From Bacteroidota bacterium (GTDB lineage Bacteria > Bacteroidota > Bacteroidia > Chitinophagales > Chitinophagaceae), in NCBI GenBank assembly GCA_947476145.1, contig CANJPH010000011.1:2663-66662 (forward strand): 64,000 nt of DNA. Reading direction: 5' to 3'. Below, one piece after another: positions 11,117 to 17,518 of the stretch; within the stretch, counting starts at the first letter, position 1, and each line of letters starts with the position of its first letter. The translations under genes and the position numbers were made by a program. The notes below the pieces were generated by a model. That model worked only from the letters and a program-made list of their open reading frames with translations. It was not told the DNA's origin and searched no databases.

Positions 11117-12259
11117 TTACTCTTCGACACTATTTTTTAATTTCATTAATAATGTAAATGCATTTTTAATAACAATTTGCTGATTGTCTAAATTCGTCTT
11201 GATCTCTGCAAAGCCATTAGAATGGACACCAGTTTCAACCAGTATTAATTTATAACTTAATTCGGTTTGCTTAGCAAATACATAATCTTTGTTTTGCCAC
11301 TTTACAATTGCCTCCTCAGGCAAAGCTTTTACTTTCGCATTATTTAAGGATACTTCGGCGTTAACAAAAGTGCCAGGGAATAATTTAATTTTTTCATTCA
11401 CTAAATGACAATGTACGTCCGTTGTGCTTTCCTCTGTAATATTAGGAGTAATCACTGCTACATGTGCTATATATTTTTCATTCACATTGCTATTAGTATA
11501 AAAACTAACCGTGTTGCCAATTTGCAAATTAGCAGCATCATTATCTAAAACTGTAAGTCTTAGGTGCAAATCACTTGGATCAACAATTTCAAAAAGAATG
11601 TCTGTGGGCGATACGTATTTCCCAATATTCACATTCACCTTGGTTACATATCCACTAATGGGTGCAAAAAAGTTTATAGCCCTAGAAATATTCTCTTCGG
11701 TAAGTGTAGCTGGATTTAATCCTATTAATTTTAATTTCTCACTTAAAGATTTAACTAAAAGTTTTTGGGTCTCAAAATCACTCTTTGCCGCTTGATAAAC
11801 TTTATCACTCACTGTTTTTGATTCGTTCAACCCTTTTTGCCTTACATAATCAGCTTCTAAATAAGCCAACCTGCTTATTGCAGTTAAATAATTTTGTTGC
11901 AAATCAATGTAACTAGGGTCTTCAAGCACCGCAATAACTTCCCCTTTTTTTACTTGTACTCCAGGTATTAAGTTTGTCTTTTTTAAATATCCACCCATTG
12001 GGATACTAATAGAAACCAGGTTACTTGGGGGAACATCCATATGCCCATTTACTTTTAGCAACTTTTGTACCAAAGTATCCACCACTAAACCCAGCTCCAA
12101 ATTGGCATTCTTCAACTGCTCAGTTGTCAATGTTACCAACTCCCCTTTAGCTGCAGCTTCTATTGGGGCATTGCTATTGTCACTCGTAGCACCTTTTTTA
12201 CCAGTACAGGAAAAAAGTAAAATGCTCGTAAATAATAAAATCGTTGTACTGTATTTCAT
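11117..12259 (-). CDS. czcB: Heavy-metal RND efflux periplasmic adaptor (CzcB/CusB-like) lipoprotein
   Basis: Lipobox LFSC, APISGYV, biotinyl-lipoyl-like GVQVKKGEVIA, LFPGTFVNA; directly downstream of the RND pump. Confidence 0.85.
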   Translation of the reverse strand: MKYSTTILLFTSILLFSCTGKKGATSDNSNAPIEAAAKGELVTLTTEQLKNANLELGLVVDTLVQKLLKVNGHMDVPPSNLVSISIPMGGYLKKTNLIPGVQVKKGEVIAVLEDPSYIDLQQNYLTAISRLAYLEADYVRQKGLNESKTVSDKVYQAAKSDFETQKLLVKSLSEKLKLIGLNPATLTEENISRAINFFAPISGYVTKVNVNIGKYVSPTDILFEIVDPSDLHLRLTVLDNDAANLQIGNTVSFYTNSNVNEKYIAHVAVITPNITEESTTDVHCHLVNEKIKLFPGTFVNAEVSLNNAKVKALPEEAIVKWQNKDYVFAKQTELSYKLILVETGVHSNGFAEIKTNLDNQQIVIKNAFTLLMKLKNSVEE

Positions 12260-12270
12260 ATAAAATATTA

Positions 12271-15200
12271 TTAATTATTTAAACTTAATTTTTCAACTTC
12301 AATGGCAGCTTCATTAAGCTGTTGTACATATCCCAAATATTCATTTTGGCCTTGAATAGCCTGGTTAATTATCATGACCCACTCCAAGTATCCAATTTCA
12401 CCCGCATTCAACTTTTTAGAGGCGGATTCTATCAAAATTTTAGTATTGGGTAGTACACTTCGCTGGTATTCCTCTACTACTTTTTTATTTTGCAGATACA
12501 TAGAAATGGCATCTTTTAAATTTGTTTGTAATTGCTGACTCACCGCTTGTTTCTCTAGTTTATTTTGTGAAATAGCAATATTACCCGCATTGATTCTTGC
12601 TTTTTGAGCACTAGCAAATAAAGGAACTGACAATCCAATATTAAAAGTTCCAAATCGATGATCCGAACCATAATATCTTTCATTATTTTGAGTAGTTGTT
12701 TGCCAACCAATAATTGTAGTAGAATTATAGCCCATATTTAAATTTGGGTTCAATTTACTTTTCTCAAGCTTTAATTGTTGCTCCGATTTAGTAATATTTG
12801 CTTCCTGAATTCTTAAGGCTGGGGATTGCTCTAAAGAGAGCAGGTCCGGCATAGCAGTCAAAATCAAAATATTATTTTCAAAGTTGGGTTCATATTGTAC
12901 GCTACAATTAAGTAAATCATTAAATTGATTCATTGCAATGTCATAGCCCGTATTAATTGCCTGCACCTGGCTTTTAATTTGCGTCAACTGATTTTCGGCA
13001 GTTACTTTTTCTAGAATATCAGCATTGCCAGCATTAAATTTTTGTACTGCCCTAAATACAAATGAAGAATAGATGCTATCTGCTATTTTTAACAAAGCGC
13101 TTCTTTGTTGCAATAAAACTAAATGGTAATAATGCTTCTTGACTAATGTTTTTAACTCAACATCCTTTTGTAATTTATAGAGGGTGCTAATTTCAAAATT
13201 AGATTTATTAACAGCACCTTGATATTTATACACGGTTGGAAACTGAATACTTTGAGAAATATTATATTGATTGTCGCTATTAAAGCTATTTATATTTCCA
13301 TATCCAAATCCAATGGCTGTTTTTTCAATATCAATATTTGTTTTTTTCAACGCTTGATAATAATCAACCTGTGCTGTTGCAACTTTCCCAAATGCATTAT
13401 TCTTTAATGCTGAATCCATTGCGGCAGTCAAGCTAATTTTTTGTTGGGCGCTGGCACCTGTACTAAGGAGTAACCATATTCCAATTAGGACAAAACTAGC
13501 CTTGACTTTGCTTACTTGGCCCACCCCTTTCTCAAATAAAATATACATAACTGGTAATACAAATAAAGTTAATAATGTAGAAATAATCAATCCGCCTATT
13601 ACAACCGTTGCCAAAGGCTTTTGAACTTCGCCACCGGCCCCTGTACTAATTGCCATAGGGATAAACCCTAGTGCAGGAACAAATGCCGTCATCAGTACCG
13701 CGCGTAATTTTGACTTGGTAGCATGAATTACAATTCGTTTTACATCATGCCATCCCTCCGCTTTTAATCGATTGAATTCTGAGACCAATAATATTCCATT
13801 TAATACCGCAACACCGAATAAGGCAATAAACCCTACACCAGCAGAAATACTAAATGGCATGGATCTAGCCCACAATGCAAATATGCCTCCCATCGCCGAC
13901 AATGGAATGGCAGTATAAATAAGTAAACCTTGCTTTGCAGAACCAAATGCGAAATAAAGTAAAAGGAAAATTAAAACCAATGCAATTGGTACTACAATAC
14001 TTAATCTCTCTTTTGCAGCGGTCATATTTTCAAATGACCCCCCATATTCAATGGTATACCCTTTTGATAAATGCAAGTTTTGATGAATCTTAGTTTGTAA
14101 TTCTTTTACAATAGTTTGAACGTCTTTGCCATTAACATTAAATCCAACAATAATTCTACGTTTGGTATTTTCTCTTTGAATTTGATTAACGCCTTCAATT
14201 TGAACAATACTTGCAACCGCAGATAATGGGATAGGTAAGCCTTTTGCTGTAGTGATAGATAAATTTTCAATGTCACTCATATTTTTTCGGACATCACCAT
14301 CCAATCTTACCACCATATCAAATCGCTTCTCTTCCTCATATACCTGACCCGCAACCTGACCAGCAAATGCACTGTTTACTACTTTATTAATATCTGATAC
14401 ATTTAAGCCATACTTGGCCATACCATCTCGATTGTATTTTATGACCACCTGTGGCATCCCTGTCACTTTTTCTTCATAAATATTTACAGCACCGTTCACG
14501 GTTTGTATAATTTGATTTAATTTACCCGCATATTTTGTTAGGCTATCTAAATTTTCACCATAAATTTTACAAACAACGTCCTGTCTTGCACCAGTCATTA
14601 ATTCATTAAAACGCATTTGAACAGGAAACTGAAAGCCGACTGTAATGCCAGGCACCTGTTCCAGCACCTTAGTCATCTTCATACTTAATTCACTAAACGA
14701 TGAAGCAGACACCCATTCTTCTTTATCTTTTAAAATGACCATCATATCCCCTGCTTCAAAAGGCATAGGATCTGTAGGAATTTCGGCACTACCAATTTTG
14801 GTGACTACTTTTTCCACTTCAGGAAAATTTTGCATTAATAATCTGGACGCTTTCTGAGTAGCCTCTATTGTATTATTTAAATTACTTCCGGTTAATACTC
14901 TTGTTTCTACTGCAAAATCACCTTCTTCCAATTGTGGAATAAACTCTCCACCCATATTTAATAATATAATGACAGCAACAGAAAATAAAGCAACTGTTGA
15001 TATAATGACTGATTTTGGAAATTTTAATATAAGACCTAATAATGGCTGATATCTTCTTTCTAAAAAACGCATAAGCCTATCTGCAACACTTGGTTTGTGA
15101 TTCAGCTTCTTATTTAAACATAAGGCAGCCATCATAGGCACATAGGTAATAGATAATATAAATGCACCTAAAATTGCAAACGCAATGGTGTATGCCATAG

Positions 15201-16635
15201 GTTTAAACATTTTGCCCTCAATACCTTGTAAGGAAAGAATAGGTAGGTAAACTATTAAAATAATAATTTGACTAAATACGGCTGATTTAATCATGGCACC
15301 GGTTGACTTTCCTACCTCCTCATCCATATCCTCCTGGTTCACTTGTACTAAATTTCTAAAATGTTTAGAATGCACGAATCTATGGAGTATGGCTTCAACC
15401 ACAATGACGGATCCATCCACAATGAGCCCAAAATCTATGGCGCCTAAGGACATTAAATTTCCACCCACACCAAACATATTCATTAATATAATGGCAAATA
15501 ACATGGAAAGCGGAATCACTGAGGATACGATTAATCCTGCTCTAAAATTTCCAAGGAAAAATACTAAAACGAATATGACAATCAATGCTCCTTCCAATAA
15601 ATTAGTCTCCACAGTTTTAATAGCATTGTTTACCATTTTAGTTCTATCTAAAAAAGGCTCAATCACTACTCCCTCTGGCAACATTTTTTGAATGGCAGCT
15701 ACTTTTTCTTTTACGCGCTTTACTACTGCCGAAGCGTTTTCTCCTTTCAACATCATGACTACCGCCCCAGCTACCTCTCCTTTATCATTAAAGGTCATAG
15801 CACCATAACGAATGGCAGATCCATACTGCACTTTGGCTAGATCTCTAATTAACAAAGGGGTGCCATTGTCTAAAACTTTTACCACAATTTTATCAATGTC
15901 CTCTAAATTAGTGGTTAGCCCTTCACTTCGAATATATAAAACAGTAGGGCCTTTTTCGATATAAGCCCCTCCCGTATTTTGATTGTTCTTTTCCAATGCC
16001 CCAAAAATATCAGTGATGGTTAATCCGTATGCTTTTAATTGTTCCTGCCTTACTGCAATTTCATACTGCTTTAGCTTACCTCCAAAGCTGGCTACTTCTG
16101 CCACTCCAGGTGTACCAATAAGTTGTCTTCTTACAATCCAATCCTGTATAGTTCTTAATTGCATGGCATCATACTTATCCTCATAGCCCTTTAAAGGCCT
16201 TACTACATACTGATAAATTTCACCCAGTCCGGTGGAGACAGGCGCTAATTCCGGCGAGCCGGTTCCAACTGGGATATCCTGTTGTACTTTTTGTAATTTT
16301 TCGCTTATCTGTTGCCTGGCCCAATAAATATCTACATCATCCTTAAATACGATGGTAATGAGGGATAATCCAAATCTGGAAAAACTTCTAATTTGTTGGG
16401 TGCCTGGAATACTACTACAAGCTTGCTCTATAGGGAAAGTGACCAAACGCTCAATATCATTGGCACCCAAGGAGGGTGATACAGTAATAACTTGAACCTG
16501 ATTATCAGTGATATCCGGTACGGCATCAATAGGCAATTTAGTAACCTCGTATACCCCCCAGCCTACTAGTGCTATCACAAATAAACCAATGATTAGCTTA
16601 TTCTTGATAGAATAAGTAATTACTTTATTTAACAT
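12271..16635 (-). CDS. czcA: CzcA-type heavy-metal RND efflux pump with fused C-terminal TolC-like outer membrane factor
   Basis: LPIDAVPDITDNQVQV, SLGAIDFGLIVDGSVIVVE (CzcA-type D-D-E), FGVAVLNGI, KPLATVVIGGL; about 400 extra C-terminal helical residues. Start ATG 16635. Confidence 0.92.
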   Translation of the reverse strand: MLNKVITYSIKNKLIIGLFVIALVGWGVYEVTKLPIDAVPDITDNQVQVITVSPSLGANDIERLVTFPIEQACSSIPGTQQIRSFSRFGLSLITIVFKDDVDIYWARQQISEKLQKVQQDIPVGTGSPELAPVSTGLGEIYQYVVRPLKGYEDKYDAMQLRTIQDWIVRRQLIGTPGVAEVASFGGKLKQYEIAVRQEQLKAYGLTITDIFGALEKNNQNTGGAYIEKGPTVLYIRSEGLTTNLEDIDKIVVKVLDNGTPLLIRDLAKVQYGSAIRYGAMTFNDKGEVAGAVVMMLKGENASAVVKRVKEKVAAIQKMLPEGVVIEPFLDRTKMVNNAIKTVETNLLEGALIVIFVLVFFLGNFRAGLIVSSVIPLSMLFAIILMNMFGVGGNLMSLGAIDFGLIVDGSVIVVEAILHRFVHSKHFRNLVQVNQEDMDEEVGKSTGAMIKSAVFSQIIILIVYLPILSLQGIEGKMFKPMAYTIAFAILGAFILSITYVPMMAALCLNKKLNHKPSVADRLMRFLERRYQPLLGLILKFPKSVIISTVALFSVAVIILLNMGGEFIPQLEEGDFAVETRVLTGSNLNNTIEATQKASRLLMQNFPEVEKVVTKIGSAEIPTDPMPFEAGDMMVILKDKEEWVSASSFSELSMKMTKVLEQVPGITVGFQFPVQMRFNELMTGARQDVVCKIYGENLDSLTKYAGKLNQIIQTVNGAVNIYEEKVTGMPQVVIKYNRDGMAKYGLNVSDINKVVNSAFAGQVAGQVYEEEKRFDMVVRLDGDVRKNMSDIENLSITTAKGLPIPLSAVASIVQIEGVNQIQRENTKRRIIVGFNVNGKDVQTIVKELQTKIHQNLHLSKGYTIEYGGSFENMTAAKERLSIVVPIALVLIFLLLYFAFGSAKQGLLIYTAIPLSAMGGIFALWARSMPFSISAGVGFIALFGVAVLNGILLVSEFNRLKAEGWHDVKRIVIHATKSKLRAVLMTAFVPALGFIPMAISTGAGGEVQKPLATVVIGGLIISTLLTLFVLPVMYILFEKGVGQVSKVKASFVLIGIWLLLSTGASAQQKISLTAAMDSALKNNAFGKVATAQVDYYQALKKTNIDIEKTAIGFGYGNINSFNSDNQYNISQSIQFPTVYKYQGAVNKSNFEISTLYKLQKDVELKTLVKKHYYHLVLLQQRSALLKIADSIYSSFVFRAVQKFNAGNADILEKVTAENQLTQIKSQVQAINTGYDIAMNQFNDLLNCSVQYEPNFENNILILTAMPDLLSLEQSPALRIQEANITKSEQQLKLEKSKLNPNLNMGYNSTTIIGWQTTTQNNERYYGSDHRFGTFNIGLSVPLFASAQKARINAGNIAISQNKLEKQAVSQQLQTNLKDAISMYLQNKKVVEEYQRSVLPNTKILIESASKKLNAGEIGYLEWVMIINQAIQGQNEYLGYVQQLNEAAIEVEKLSLNN

Positions 16636-16700
16636 AAAAAATAAATTCAATAATGAAAGAAAAAATTACACATGTAAGTGTAAAAAACGCGCGCGCAAAA

Positions 16701-17087
16701 TTATACTAATCGAGGAGGTTGAAAAATATTGCCATGACTCATGGACAAATTTTTATCATCATCAAAATGTAAATATACCTTGGGGTCTGCAAATAAGACA
16801 GCAGTAGCTATAGAAATTTTTGGAGCAAATAATGTTACAAAATTTAACAACGAAACAGTGCGGTTAGACGACTTAAATGGCAACTCCATGTCCTGTTGAT
16901 AATCGCTGTCAAAAGTTTGCGGCTGAAAATAATGCATGTGAATAAACTTCGAAAAACTTAAGCCACGCTCAAATTGCTTATGTGTTTTGTAATGCTCAAA
17001 TAAATTAGGCATTTTTAGCAATTGATATGCTTCCGTTGCACCTAATAAATACAAGGAGCTAAGAAATATGACGATGGCTTTTTTCAC
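16701..17087 (-). CDS. His-rich hypothetical protein directly upstream of czcA (candidate leader/regulatory ORF)
   Basis: GTG start; hydrophobic N-terminus; EHYKTH, HMHY, DxDxxxDMxLPFK; ends IFQPPRLV. TAACTTTA promoter-like element at 17092-17099. Confidence 0.75.
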   Translation of the reverse strand: MKKAIVIFLSSLYLLGATEAYQLLKMPNLFEHYKTHKQFERGLSFSKFIHMHYFQPQTFDSDYQQDMELPFKSSNRTVSLLNFVTLFAPKISIATAVLFADPKVYLHFDDDKNLSMSHGNIFQPPRLV

Positions 17088-17130
17088 ACTATAAAGTTAC
17101 CATTTTTAATGCTTTAATACGCATCAATTT

Positions 17131-17177
17131 TAAGCAATAAAAAAACCCTCTTTTTGAGAGGGCATTTTTATTGCTTA
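17131..17177. terminator. Intrinsic terminator after the HMA gene (possibly bidirectional)
   Basis: CCCTCT/AGAGGG core stem inside a 13-bp TAAGCAATAAAAA/TTTTTATTGCTTA inverted repeat; 7-U tail on the minus strand. Confidence 0.8.
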
Positions 17178-17182
17178 AATGC

Positions 17183-17518
17183 TTATTTCTTTTTCTTCTT
17201 ACGATCGTATTGGCAACACTCCTCTAGTTTTTTATAGGCTTCTTCGGTTGCTACTTTATTTTCAGTATCGTACCCAGCGCCTGCAATAGCTGTCTCAATC
17301 TTATCTGTACTTGTCTTTCCTGCATCAAAAGTCAGGGCTAGTAATTTTTTAGCCTTGTCCCAATTTGCAGTAGTAGCGCCTGCGTCCATAGCAGCTTTTT
17401 CAATACTTTTTTTACAAGACCCACAATTGCCAGACACTTTTATAGTAGTAGGTGCTTGTGCAAATGCAAAATTGCAAACCATTAAAAGCAAAGAAACCAT
17501 CATGAAGTTCTTTTTCAT
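17183..17518 (-). CDS. Exported heavy-metal-associated (HMA) domain protein
   Basis: Signal peptide ending AFA-Q, GNCGSC metal motif, IAGAGY, C-terminal ECCQY. Confidence 0.88.
   Translation of the reverse strand: MKKNFMMVSLLLMVCNFAFAQAPTTIKVSGNCGSCKKSIEKAAMDAGATTANWDKAKKLLALTFDAGKTSTDKIETAIAGAGYDTENKVATEEAYKKLEECCQYDRKKKKK

Follow-up and report, generated by a model that had tools for sequence, protein, structure and literature searches.

What controls a heavy-metal efflux pump when no regulator gene accompanies it? Heavy-metal efflux regulation in Bacteroidota is poorly understood, and in the loci that carry the small open reading frame (ORF) described here no regulator gene recurs upstream of it. 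We analyzed such a locus in a stretch of 64,000 nucleotides from a Chitinophagaceae genome (contig CANJPH010000011.1, positions 2,663 to 66,662 of the forward strand), referred to as the window throughout. The small ORF is located on the minus strand (17087..16701), directly upstream of the gene for a CzcA-type pump. A first-pass annotation of the same DNA had proposed that it is a metal-sensing leader with an export signal, a His-based ligand motif and a translation arrest motif at its C-terminus. In the following we describe a large protein family with a conserved terminal Q-P-P motif to which this ORF belongs, its occurrence at the head of metal or redox operons, and a probable sister family with a different ligand module. 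These observations are consistent with a cis-acting nascent-chain metal sensor, a reading which we hold with about even confidence and which is weighed below against its alternatives.

A family of small proteins with a conserved terminal Q-P-P motif

The candidate leader ORF starts with a GTG codon (17087-17085), comprises 128 codons and ends with TAA (16703-16701). Its translation of 128 residues is MKKAIVIFLSSLYLLGATEAYQLLKMPNLFEHYKTHKQFERGLSFSKFIHMHYFQPQTFDSDYQQDMELPFKSSNRTVSLLNFVTLFAPKISIATAVLFADPKVYLHFDDDKNLSMSHGNIFQPPRLV. The coordinates assigned to it in the first-pass annotation are right, with the clarification that the ORF and its neighbours all belong to the minus strand, and the sequence-level description of the region was fully borne out. 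MKK followed by a hydrophobic N-terminus, the motifs EHYKTH, HMHY and DSDYQQD, and QPP followed by R-L-V and the stop codon are all present.

A word-indexed search with the full-length protein revealed 228 close full-length homologues with identities of 58–94%, all labelled hypothetical and all from Chitinophagaceae or Bacteroidota. A profile of 25 homologues was compared with 1.84 billion representative proteins and matched 1,730 clusters at 50% identity with an expect value (E) ≤ 1e-3, 852 of these with E ≤ 1e-10. Nearly all of the matched proteins have 125–130 residues and are aligned end to end, the uniform length being about 127 residues. Pfam and NCBIfam hold no family for the leader protein, and a comparison of 92 diverse members with both collections yielded no curated family apart from two weak matches to DUF6660. 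No relative of the family was found in the PDB by sequence profile, and a Foldseek search with the confident structure model (see below) detected no structural relative either.

Loci for the analysis of the gene neighbourhood were collected with a degenerate DNA pattern (MQLPFK, a gap, QPP) using one genome per species. This pattern matched at least 120 stretches, and 119 family members were present among the matches listed. The locus counts given below for the family rest on these listed matches (L009–L128). In this set the family occurs in Chitinophagales (including Saprospiraceae and Lewinellaceae), Sphingobacteriales and Flavobacterium. The Bacteroidota operon was also encountered in metagenome-assembled genomes labelled Comamonas, Asaia, Synechococcus, Brevifollis, Williamsia, Chloroflexota and Bifidobacterium (L013, L039, L071, L097, L099, L100 and L124). 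Because the pumps of these genomes are 48–89% identical to that of the window, the genomes are taken as mis-binned; there is little doubt that binning or labelling in the public assemblies went wrong here.

The C-terminal motif I-F-Q-P-P-R of the window protein is encoded at 16710..16727 on the minus strand, with the two Pro codons (CCT CCT) at 16718-16713, and is followed by L-V and the stop codon. Motif statistics were taken from the best 150 of the 1,730 cluster representatives (≤50% identity). A C-terminal Pro-Pro was present in 146 of them, and the remaining four look truncated. Within these 146 sequences the motif consists of I or V (141), W or F (145), Q (135) and the two prolines, followed in most cases by R or K (R, K or Q in 140). 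From the Pro-Pro there are two to three residues to the stop codon in 119 of the 146 representatives, and the distance between the upstream LPF element and the Pro-Pro amounts to 53–56 residues in 135. Thus, the terminal (I/V)(F/W)QPP(R/K) that had been deduced from the single window sequence is conserved among diverse representatives. The Pro codons differ synonymously between loci, which points to selection on the peptide. The motif was found on no other type of ORF in the examined loci or in the window.

Column by column, conservation was analyzed in 92 diverse sequences with 29–61% identity to the window protein. Invariant residues are P27, H32, H52, Y53, L69, P70, P124 and P125; K25, H36, F48, D62, D66, F71, K72, I121 and Q123 are conserved in at least 90% of the sequences. 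The His residues to which the first-pass annotation had drawn attention are therefore conserved together with two Asp residues of the same region. The overall pattern is bipartite, with 72 conserved N-terminal residues and a six-residue terminal motif (residues 121–126, near-invariant in the information profile) separated by a variable linker of about 48 residues and fixed length. The conserved N-terminal part contains MKK, the hydrophobic core, T18-E19, QLLKLP, H-[YF]-x-E-H, F-L-x-x-H-Y and D-x-D-Y-x-x-D-M-Q-L-P-F-K.

According to hydropathy and the conservation profile, residues 1–18 (17034..17087, minus strand) comprise MKK and a hydrophobic core ending with G-A-T and are predicted to serve either as a signal peptide of the Sec type or as a signal anchor with N-in orientation. 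Small residues occupy positions −3 and −1 if the predicted cleavage takes place after T18, and residues 2–17 are helical in the structure model of the leader protein. Residues 19–72 (16872..17033, minus strand) form the conserved ligand module with invariant or ≥90% conserved columns and a predicted local distance difference test score (pLDDT) of 89–97. It includes E19, QLLKxP, H32-x-x-(E)-H36, F48, H52-Y53 and D60-x-D62-Y-x-x-D66-M-x-L-P-F-K72 and is the putative divalent-metal binding part. The linker (residues 73–120; 16728..16871, minus strand) carries less than 1 bit of information per column at constant length. Its hydrophobicity is insufficient for a transmembrane segment, prolines are scattered along it, and about half of the members have a Cys residue there.

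Genomic context of the leader family

A CzcA-type pump gene follows directly in 96 of the 110 loci with enough downstream sequence and a called ORF there, in agreement with the expectation that the ORF precedes metal transport genes. In three further loci one extra small gene lies between the leader ORF and czcA. Where the pump is complete it is mostly (36 of 44) a protein of about 1,450 residues in which a resistance-nodulation-division (RND) permease is fused to an OEP domain. The motif DFG...DG[AS]...[VI]EA of transmembrane segment 4 (TM4) was present in 78 of 82 homologous pumps. We take this motif to be a marker of the divalent-cation (CzcA) substrate class as opposed to CusA.

In the window the CzcA-type RND permease fused to an OEP domain is encoded at 12271..16635 on the minus strand (1,454 residues; ACR_tran with E = 1.2e-271 and OEP; TIGR00914). 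Its product was identified as a heavy-metal efflux (HME) RND protein by the ACR_tran and TIGR00914 matches and by the TM4 motif DFG...DG[AS]...VE[NA], in contrast to the CusA-type AIG...MVD. The TM4 motif, DFGLIVDGSVIVVEA, begins at residue 401 and is of the CzcA type. The last gene of the operon encodes a CzcB/HlyD-type periplasmic adaptor (11117..12259, minus strand; assigned with Pfam and NCBIfam).

The leader ORF is not confined to pump operons. In six loci (L016, L023, L026, L050, L060 and L117), which span three separate lineages of the family, it precedes an operon led by a thioredoxin-like gene (thioredoxin confirmed with Pfam). In the three thioredoxin-led loci examined the next genes encode, judged by inspection of their sequences, an ApbE-like protein and a protein of about 400 residues with a signal-like N-terminus. 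The operon of L023 also contains a gene for a VIT1-like protein. No RND pump was found within the 0.8–7 kb of downstream sequence of the thioredoxin-led loci. In single loci the leader ORF precedes a P-type ATPase, a VIT1 transporter or a cytochrome-c lipoprotein. The leader ORF is portable across metal or redox operons. On its upstream side no gene is conserved in the relatives, and no regulator family recurs.

Promoter, start codon and predicted leaderless transcript

Upstream of the leader ORF a Bacteroidota sigma-A −7 box, TAACTTTA, is located at 17092..17099 on the minus strand (consensus TAnnTTTG). The promoter-like element that had been noted is thus found exactly 4 nt before the GTG, and it is conserved in homologous loci. 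In 73 of 106 loci a strict TAnnTTT[GA] box ends 1–7 nt (mode 4–5) ahead of the start codon, compared with 0.8% for random positions. In Flavobacterium psychrophilum the sigma-A box occupies positions −12 to −5 (PMC9723704). With this position, transcription is predicted to start at the first base of the start codon or 1 nt earlier, and the mRNA of the leader ORF would be leaderless. The leaderless share of Bacteroidota mRNAs is only 3.7–5.5%.

The start codon is kept at the aligned position in all loci and is GTG in 38, TTG in 36 and ATG in 32 of them; about 70% of the loci use GTG or TTG. A sigma-A box 4–5 nt from the start codon was also observed at DUF6660 genes and at one DUF8199 gene (see below). 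Small first cistrons that are leaderless and start with a codon other than AUG may be a general design of metal loci in Bacteroidota.

Further upstream an intrinsic terminator (17145..17163, minus strand) belongs to a gene for a protein with an HMA domain. It consists of GCCCTCT-CAAAA-AGAGGGT followed by a T-run, i.e., a G+C-rich hairpin of 7 pairs including 4 G-C pairs. This strong terminator, already recognized in the first-pass annotation, isolates the leader ORF from transcription coming from upstream. A comparison with Rfam gave only sub-threshold matches, all of them on this terminator.

DUF6660 is a probable sister family

Pfam family DUF6660 (PF20365) is probably a distantly related sister of the leader family, as judged from sequence comparisons. 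DUF6660 comprises small Cys-rich proteins of Flavobacteriaceae with no assigned function, whereas the leader family is mainly found in Chitinophagales and Sphingobacteriales. The PF20365 profile did not match the window protein and gave weak matches for two of the 92 members (best E = 0.01). An hhalign comparison of the two families resulted in a probability of 62.6% and an E value of 7.3e-5 for columns 66–128 of the leader family and 46–103 of DUF6660, which correspond to the C-terminal halves. In this alignment DMQLPFK is paired with DLCSPFC and IWQPPR with LLQPPRV.

The contribution of the terminal motif was also seen in profile scores. A DUF6660-like probe scored 150.8 bits on PF20365 over the whole profile; deletion of its last 8 residues cost 17 bits and a PP-to-AA exchange 6 bits. 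When the tail of the window protein, SNIFQPPRLV, was grafted on the shortened probe, 12 bits were restored. Of 120 DUF6660 proteins, all from Flavobacteriaceae, 118 end with [LI][LF]QPP[RQK]x-stop, and in 111 exactly two residues follow the Pro-Pro. The spacing between the ligands and the Pro-Pro is likewise constrained in both families: C.PFC and the Pro-Pro of DUF6660 are a fixed 50 residues apart, compared with 53–56 residues in the leader family.

Both families begin with MK and a hydrophobic signal, and a D-x-x-(L/S)-P-F element is common to them. DUF6660 genes are also first cistrons, 125–255 nt upstream of a gene for an RND+OEP fusion pump and one for a CzcB adaptor, as in the leader family. 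In one Zobellia strain the DUF6660 gene precedes genes for a 161-residue protein and a P-type ATPase. Before the GTG or ATG start of DUF6660 genes there is a TATCTTTG or TATATTTG box at a distance of 4–5 nt, and a U-run and a small hairpin follow their stop codon, again as in the leader family. The proteins differ in length, those of DUF6660 being about 25 residues shorter, and in the ligand module, which is Cys/His-rich in DUF6660 (PC.D, DH.H, C.PFC.C.CCH.H) and consists of H-x-x-E-H, H-Y and D-x-D-Y-x-x-D in the leader family. As far as their sequences indicate, the two families agree in the predicted export signal, in the spacing and the terminal motif, and in promoter geometry and position, while the ligand module differs.

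Comparison with known nascent-chain sensors

The first-pass annotation had regarded the ORF as an analogue of CruR/DUF2946-type leaders. One part of this comparison holds, since a C-terminal proline motif lies near the stop codon at a conserved distance from the ligand motif, as is typical of DUF2946-type proteins. The leader family does not belong to DUF2946: neither the window protein nor any of the 92 members matched PF11162 at E ≤ 1. The N-terminal module also contains no conserved Cys motif (CXXC or CxxxC), Cys being only semi-conserved and confined to the linker.

One parallel is CutF of Rhodobacter capsulatus, a DUF2946 protein encoded in the cutFOG operon that ends with GPPPRL and the stop codon (PMC9973294). 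For CutF a weak pause sensitive to elongation factor P was reported, which is lengthened by metal (preprint 10.1101/2025.02.05.636593). Copper on the exported CxxxC motif prolongs the pause and opens a stem-loop over the cutO ribosome-binding site (PMC9973294; preprint 10.1101/2025.02.05.636593); the proline motif alone is insufficient for a stall (PMC9973294). Like cutF, the leader ORF is a small first cistron with a product predicted to be exported, a putative metal-ligand motif and a short structured spacer before the next gene. The geometry of GPPPRL-stop and QPPRLV-stop is similar with respect to the prolines, the Arg, and the residue and stop codon that follow. The two differ in that CutF uses CxxxC, Cu(I) and PPP and the leader ORF has candidate His/Asp/Glu ligands and QPP. 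Moreover, the stem-loop of CutF covers a Shine-Dalgarno site; initiation led by such sites is lacking in Bacteroidota, and no specific masking helix was found for the leader family. The reports on CutF consulted here describe no counterpart of the predicted leaderless mRNA, and the function of CutF has been demonstrated experimentally while the leader ORF is known here from its sequence.

Ozturk et al. 2023 defined CutF-like proteins by a length below 150 residues, a Pro-Pro within the last 15 residues, an N-terminal signal and a neighbour downstream on the same strand within 1,000 nt (PMC9973294). The leader ORF falls within this definition with 128 residues, a Pro-Pro 3 residues from the end, a signal judged by hydropathy and czcA 65 nt downstream. 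Among the 5,334 CutF-like proteins of that study 19% were from Bacteroidota, and many were located upstream of ACR_tran genes; the only clusters with His alone (14 and 17) adjoin HupE/UreJ genes and not RND pumps (PMC9973294).

CruR (Bp2923) of Bordetella pertussis, a known case of control of downstream metal genes in cis, has, like the leader ORF with its predicted signal and putative ligands, an export signal and a constant distance between the ligand motif and an xxPP sequence lying 3 residues before the stop codon. Its CXXC-RAPP spacing of 45 residues is conserved within 1–2 residues and functionally required, and the RAPP stall opposes Rho-dependent termination (PMC9426467). In contrast to RAPP and CXXC of CruR, the leader family has [WF]QPP and His/Asp. 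The CruR spacer is 162 nt long, G+C-rich and subject to Rho-dependent termination, whereas the spacers of the leader family are short and A+T-rich without a bias of C over G. In addition, CruR regulates a copper-repressed importer, while the leader ORF precedes an exporter.

The RAPP/RGPP arrest peptides (ApdA, ApdP, ApcA and SecM-like peptides) resemble the leader ORF in their C-terminal xxPP core, in being part of a small secreted or membrane protein and in their position upstream of a regulated gene. Some peptides of this class are associated with metal and thioredoxin genes. The proteome screen of Fujiwara et al. 2025 covered RAPP/RGPP only and, as its authors report, Bacteroidota lack copper-related upstream ORFs of that class. 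CzcI of Cupriavidus metallidurans, compared here by its description only, is a small exported protein encoded directly upstream of the czc RND operon and was suggested to be a metal-sensing regulator; it is without a C-terminal proline motif and belongs to a DUF2946-related cluster (PMC9973294). Full-text literature searches for the motif, the leader family or DUF6660 revealed nothing relevant. The kind of system, CutF/CruR-like, is known; new is a His/Asp family for which no model exists, probably a sister of DUF6660, whose terminal motif is distinct and whose genes are predicted to be leaderless first cistrons, mostly with non-AUG starts.

The spacer between the leader ORF and czcA

The czcA ATG at 16635 leaves a spacer of 65 nt after the leader ORF (16636..16700, minus strand), in accordance with the length given before. 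The czcA reading frame could be extended to a TTG at 16650, and the alignments of homologues begin at the ATG. The A+T-rich spacer comprises TTTT, a GCGCGCGCG run (16688-16696, starting 5 nt past the leader stop codon and flanked by T-runs on both sides), T6, a weak hairpin, U6, the sequence CATTATTGAA and a U-rich stretch before the AUG, all on the minus strand. The GCGCGCGCG run is missing from the spacers of all relatives examined. The weak hairpin UUACAC-UUACAU-GUGUAA spans 16683-16666 (minus strand) and is followed by U6. The z-score of the window spacer was about −2 with mononucleotide shuffling and −0.2 for a longer stretch.

Among the loci the distance to czcA has a median of 94 nt and a range of 34–388 nt. 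Sigma-A boxes are depleted in the spacers, with one strict box in 96 spacers and 12 relaxed ones compared with 26.4 ± 4.0 in shuffled spacers; the window spacer has none. This depletion suggests that czcA depends on the transcript of the leader and speaks against a canonical czcA promoter within the spacer as a general feature. An independent promoter of czcA, which the first-pass annotation had named among the findings that would speak against its reading, was not found in the window, where the spacer contains no canonical promoter. The spacers are also more structured than their shuffled counterparts (median z-score −1.5; 38% below −2).

The leader stop codon is followed by a U-run. T makes up 79% at position +1 and 45–63% at positions +4 to +14, compared with about 32% behind the remaining stop codons of these loci, and the mean is 6.6 T in 12 nt compared with 3.9 after the stop codons of other genes. 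The run is specific for the family and is present in the DUF6660 loci as well. When a ribosome at the Pro-Pro or at the stop codon was simulated, the energy for opening the czcA start region decreased by 1.3–1.4 kcal/mol, compared with 0.2 for a control block (p = 8e-6), with an effect of at least 1 kcal in only about 45% of the loci. Canonical intrinsic terminators were rejected as a general output, a T-rich tail (at least 6 T in the 9 nt past the hairpin) being present in only 6 of 89 spacers. A C-rich spacer of the Rho type found no support in the base composition (C 16%, G 14%).

Close to czcA the sequence CATTATTGAA (16655-16646, minus strand) is conserved in the clade, 12–20 nt upstream of the czcA ATG and just past the variable hairpin. 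Clade relatives contain hairpins of unrelated sequence at the same place in the spacer, again followed by the conserved CATTATTGAA. RNAalifold yielded 0 pairs for the clade spacers; MAFFT had left the unrelated hairpin sequences out of register. The sequence is not a canonical sigma-A box; it may bind a protein, act as a weak or alternative promoter, or belong to the initiation region. Motifs similar to CATTATTGAA were also observed in L013, L022, L041, L053, L062, L072, L081, L082, L086, L088, L111 and L120.

Proposed mechanism and alternative explanations

By analogy with the characterized systems we favour a CutF/CruR-like, cis-acting nascent-chain metal sensor leader as the function of the ORF, a proposal that commands half of our confidence. 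The ORF would be the first cistron of a leaderless ORF-czcA(OEP)-czcB transcript. Its N-terminal signal or anchor would bring the growing chain to the Sec machinery, and the His/Glu/Asp module with H32, H36, H52, D62 and D66 would reach the periplasm while the last codons are still being translated and the last 30–40 residues, the variable linker, fill the exit tunnel. The invariant di-proline in I[WF]QPP[RK], 2–3 codons before the stop, would then slow peptide-bond formation. Binding of a Zn/Co/Cd-type metal to the module would alter the pull on the chain and thereby the dwell time of the ribosome at the 3′ end of the ORF. Ribosome occupancy would finally alter the structured, promoter-less spacer and in this way set czcA-czcB expression, either by opening of the czcA initiation region or by an effect on transcript elongation or stability. 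Since there is no Shine-Dalgarno-led initiation in the phylum, the output step would need to differ from the unmasking of a Shine-Dalgarno site in CutF, SecM and MifM. For the leader ORF we infer export, metal binding, the pause, its metal dependence and the output step from these parallels.

Several observations weigh against such a sensor. In the ApcA/ApdA/ApdP/SecM class the Arg is irreplaceable and the residue before the Pro-Pro must be small, i.e., A or G and partly S, D or P (PMC12992588), whereas the leader family has W or F (145 of 146) and Q (135 of 146) at these positions. By the polyproline rules of Escherichia coli (W at −2 strong, F at −2 moderate, Q at −1 weak, K at +1 moderate, R at +1 weak) the FQPPR of the window would cause a weak-to-medium pause at best; W at −2, which is seen in the family motif, belongs to the arrest-enhancing class in E. 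coli and speaks for a pause. At the RNA level a masking helix between the post-stop U-run and the A-rich czcA leader, for which several folds and the accessibility simulation had given a first hint, was tried and rejected, as cognate pairs performed no better than non-cognate ones (p = 0.12–0.41), and the match of U-run and A-run is kept only as complementarity at the level of composition. The helix is inapplicable to the window, where the leader of czcA is U-rich and no specific opening effect was seen, and a ribosome at the Pro-Pro or at the stop codon would not reach the hairpin at 16683-16666. On the side of the protein, AlphaFold2 with the alignment of 92 sequences produced a confident model (pLDDT 85.9, predicted TM-score 0.60) with residues 1–70 at 89–97; an early reading as disordered, based on a shallow-alignment model with a pLDDT of 56, was dropped after this result. 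Conservation of Y13, T18 and E19 inside the N-terminal helix exceeds what a mere targeting signal would need. A terminal Cys after the Pro-Pro, kept in 24% of the members and not co-occurring with a linker Cys (p = 0.56), would not be needed in a pure arrest peptide.

Much of this would be expected of a stable small periplasmic or membrane-anchored protein which binds metal through His and Asp and acts in trans, as a chaperone, as a buffer or as an accessory of the pump, similar to what was proposed for CzcI or CusF. QPP[RK] would then be structural or serve partner binding without a role in translation. The confident model, the strong conservation throughout residues 1–72 including the N-terminal helix, the terminal Cys, a QPPR which is neither a strong stalling context by E. 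coli rules nor of the RAPP class, and a gene co-operonic with the pump, as those of accessory proteins often are, all fit this alternative. We nevertheless consider it less likely than the sensor. Two families with unrelated ligand modules carry the same terminal motif at equal distance from the stop codon and from the ligands. Both families also head operons without an RND pump, which makes a pump-specific docking motif unlikely. As far as can be read from the sequences, the conserved features are those that the sensor mechanism would need; they survive a swap of the ligand chemistry and of the downstream operon, which such a docking motif would hardly explain. Furthermore, the predicted leaderless mRNA and 70% GTG or TTG starts suggest a low output, which would be unusual for a chaperone. 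The sequence of the linker, about 48 residues, is variable and its length is not, and the PDB contains no structural relative.

The di-proline pause could also serve the biogenesis of the small protein itself, i.e., membrane insertion, export or metal loading, and not the downstream genes. Polyproline motifs are enriched near domain boundaries and transmembrane segments and were proposed to tune co-translational folding and insertion (PMC5811046); the confidently predicted fold and the weak, non-specific coupling to czcA at the RNA level are in line with this. A pause 2–3 codons before the stop leaves about 30–40 residues in the tunnel and would therefore time only events of the N-terminal module, with a geometry identical to that of the sensor model. 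It would not account for a spacer that is structured and lacks a promoter, for the family-specific U-run past the stop codon or for the constant position as first cistron, and we regard this explanation as improbable. A frame that arose by chance, or an artefact of annotation, within a long 5′ untranslated region of czcA is an explanation of negligible probability. Only the absence of any curated family would point in this direction, and it is opposed by protein-level conservation over the full length with synonymous change in 1,730 clusters, by a start codon aligned in all loci and by the uniform length of about 127 residues. This possibility was refuted by the homologues, the family profile search and the conservation of the motif.

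Beyond the window, a wider proposal of which we are less confident than of the sensor itself, though it seems to us somewhat more probable than the trans-acting protein, concerns the whole phylum. Bacteroidota may possess phylum-specific, non-RAPP pausing peptides with the motif phi-[WFL]-Q-P-P-[RKQ], 2–3 codons before the stop of leaderless, mostly non-AUG first cistrons. Through their interchangeable periplasmic ligand modules (His/Asp; Cys in DUF6660) these peptides would be the sole sensors dedicated to metal for HME-RND pumps, P-type ATPases and thioredoxin-led operons. If the sensor reading is true, nascent-chain metal sensing would extend from copper and Cys in Proteobacteria to Zn/Co/Cd-type metals, His/Asp and another phylum, with a new pausing motif that is invisible to the published RAPP/RGPP screens. 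Two large families, the leader family with its 1,730 clusters and no Pfam or NCBIfam model, and DUF6660, would gain a function. The question would also be raised how a paused ribosome on a leaderless transcript controls a downstream gene without Shine-Dalgarno pairing. The leader family merits a curated model and provides a compact candidate part with which expression in Bacteroidota may be made to respond to metal.

Neighbouring genes and further observations

Contigs from metatranscriptomes of four independent runs, fragmentary and without strand information, all end within L082:6303-6322 inside the leader ORF. Probably the assemblies were interrupted here at a polymorphic position; a site of RNA processing is the alternative.

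The pump of the window joins an inner-membrane RND permease to an outer-membrane-factor (OEP/TolC-like) domain in one chain of 1,454 residues. The route by which the outer-membrane domain, fused to an inner-membrane permease, gets to its place is not obvious.

In locus L008 a protein of DUF8199 (PF26622) with 120 residues is encoded two genes upstream of the family ORF (L008:5998-6360, plus strand). This single example has a signal-like N-terminus, THYC and HCC, followed by SSAPPIYKLNCHYRI and the stop codon. DUF8199 ('HYC...CC...PP') shares with the leader family a sigma-A box, here 5 nt before the ATG (L008:5985-6000), and differs in its ligand motifs and in a Pro-Pro 12 residues from the end in an S-A-P-P context. 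It is possible that the DUF8199 protein represents a further CutF-like class.

The HMA-domain protein upstream of the leader ORF (17183..17518, minus strand; 111 residues) has a signal-like N-terminus and a GNCGSC motif. It is a variable neighbour outside the conserved unit and is absent or replaced in L001 and L006–L008. Its C-terminus in the window reads EECCQYDRKKKKK, whereas the HMA homologue in L006–L008 (L008:6426-6869) carries a Cys/Lys-rich extension of 40 residues (...CCKDKSCAQDKSECCKKGATCAKDKSCCKKG). Thus, the metal-binding tail of this protein is variable.

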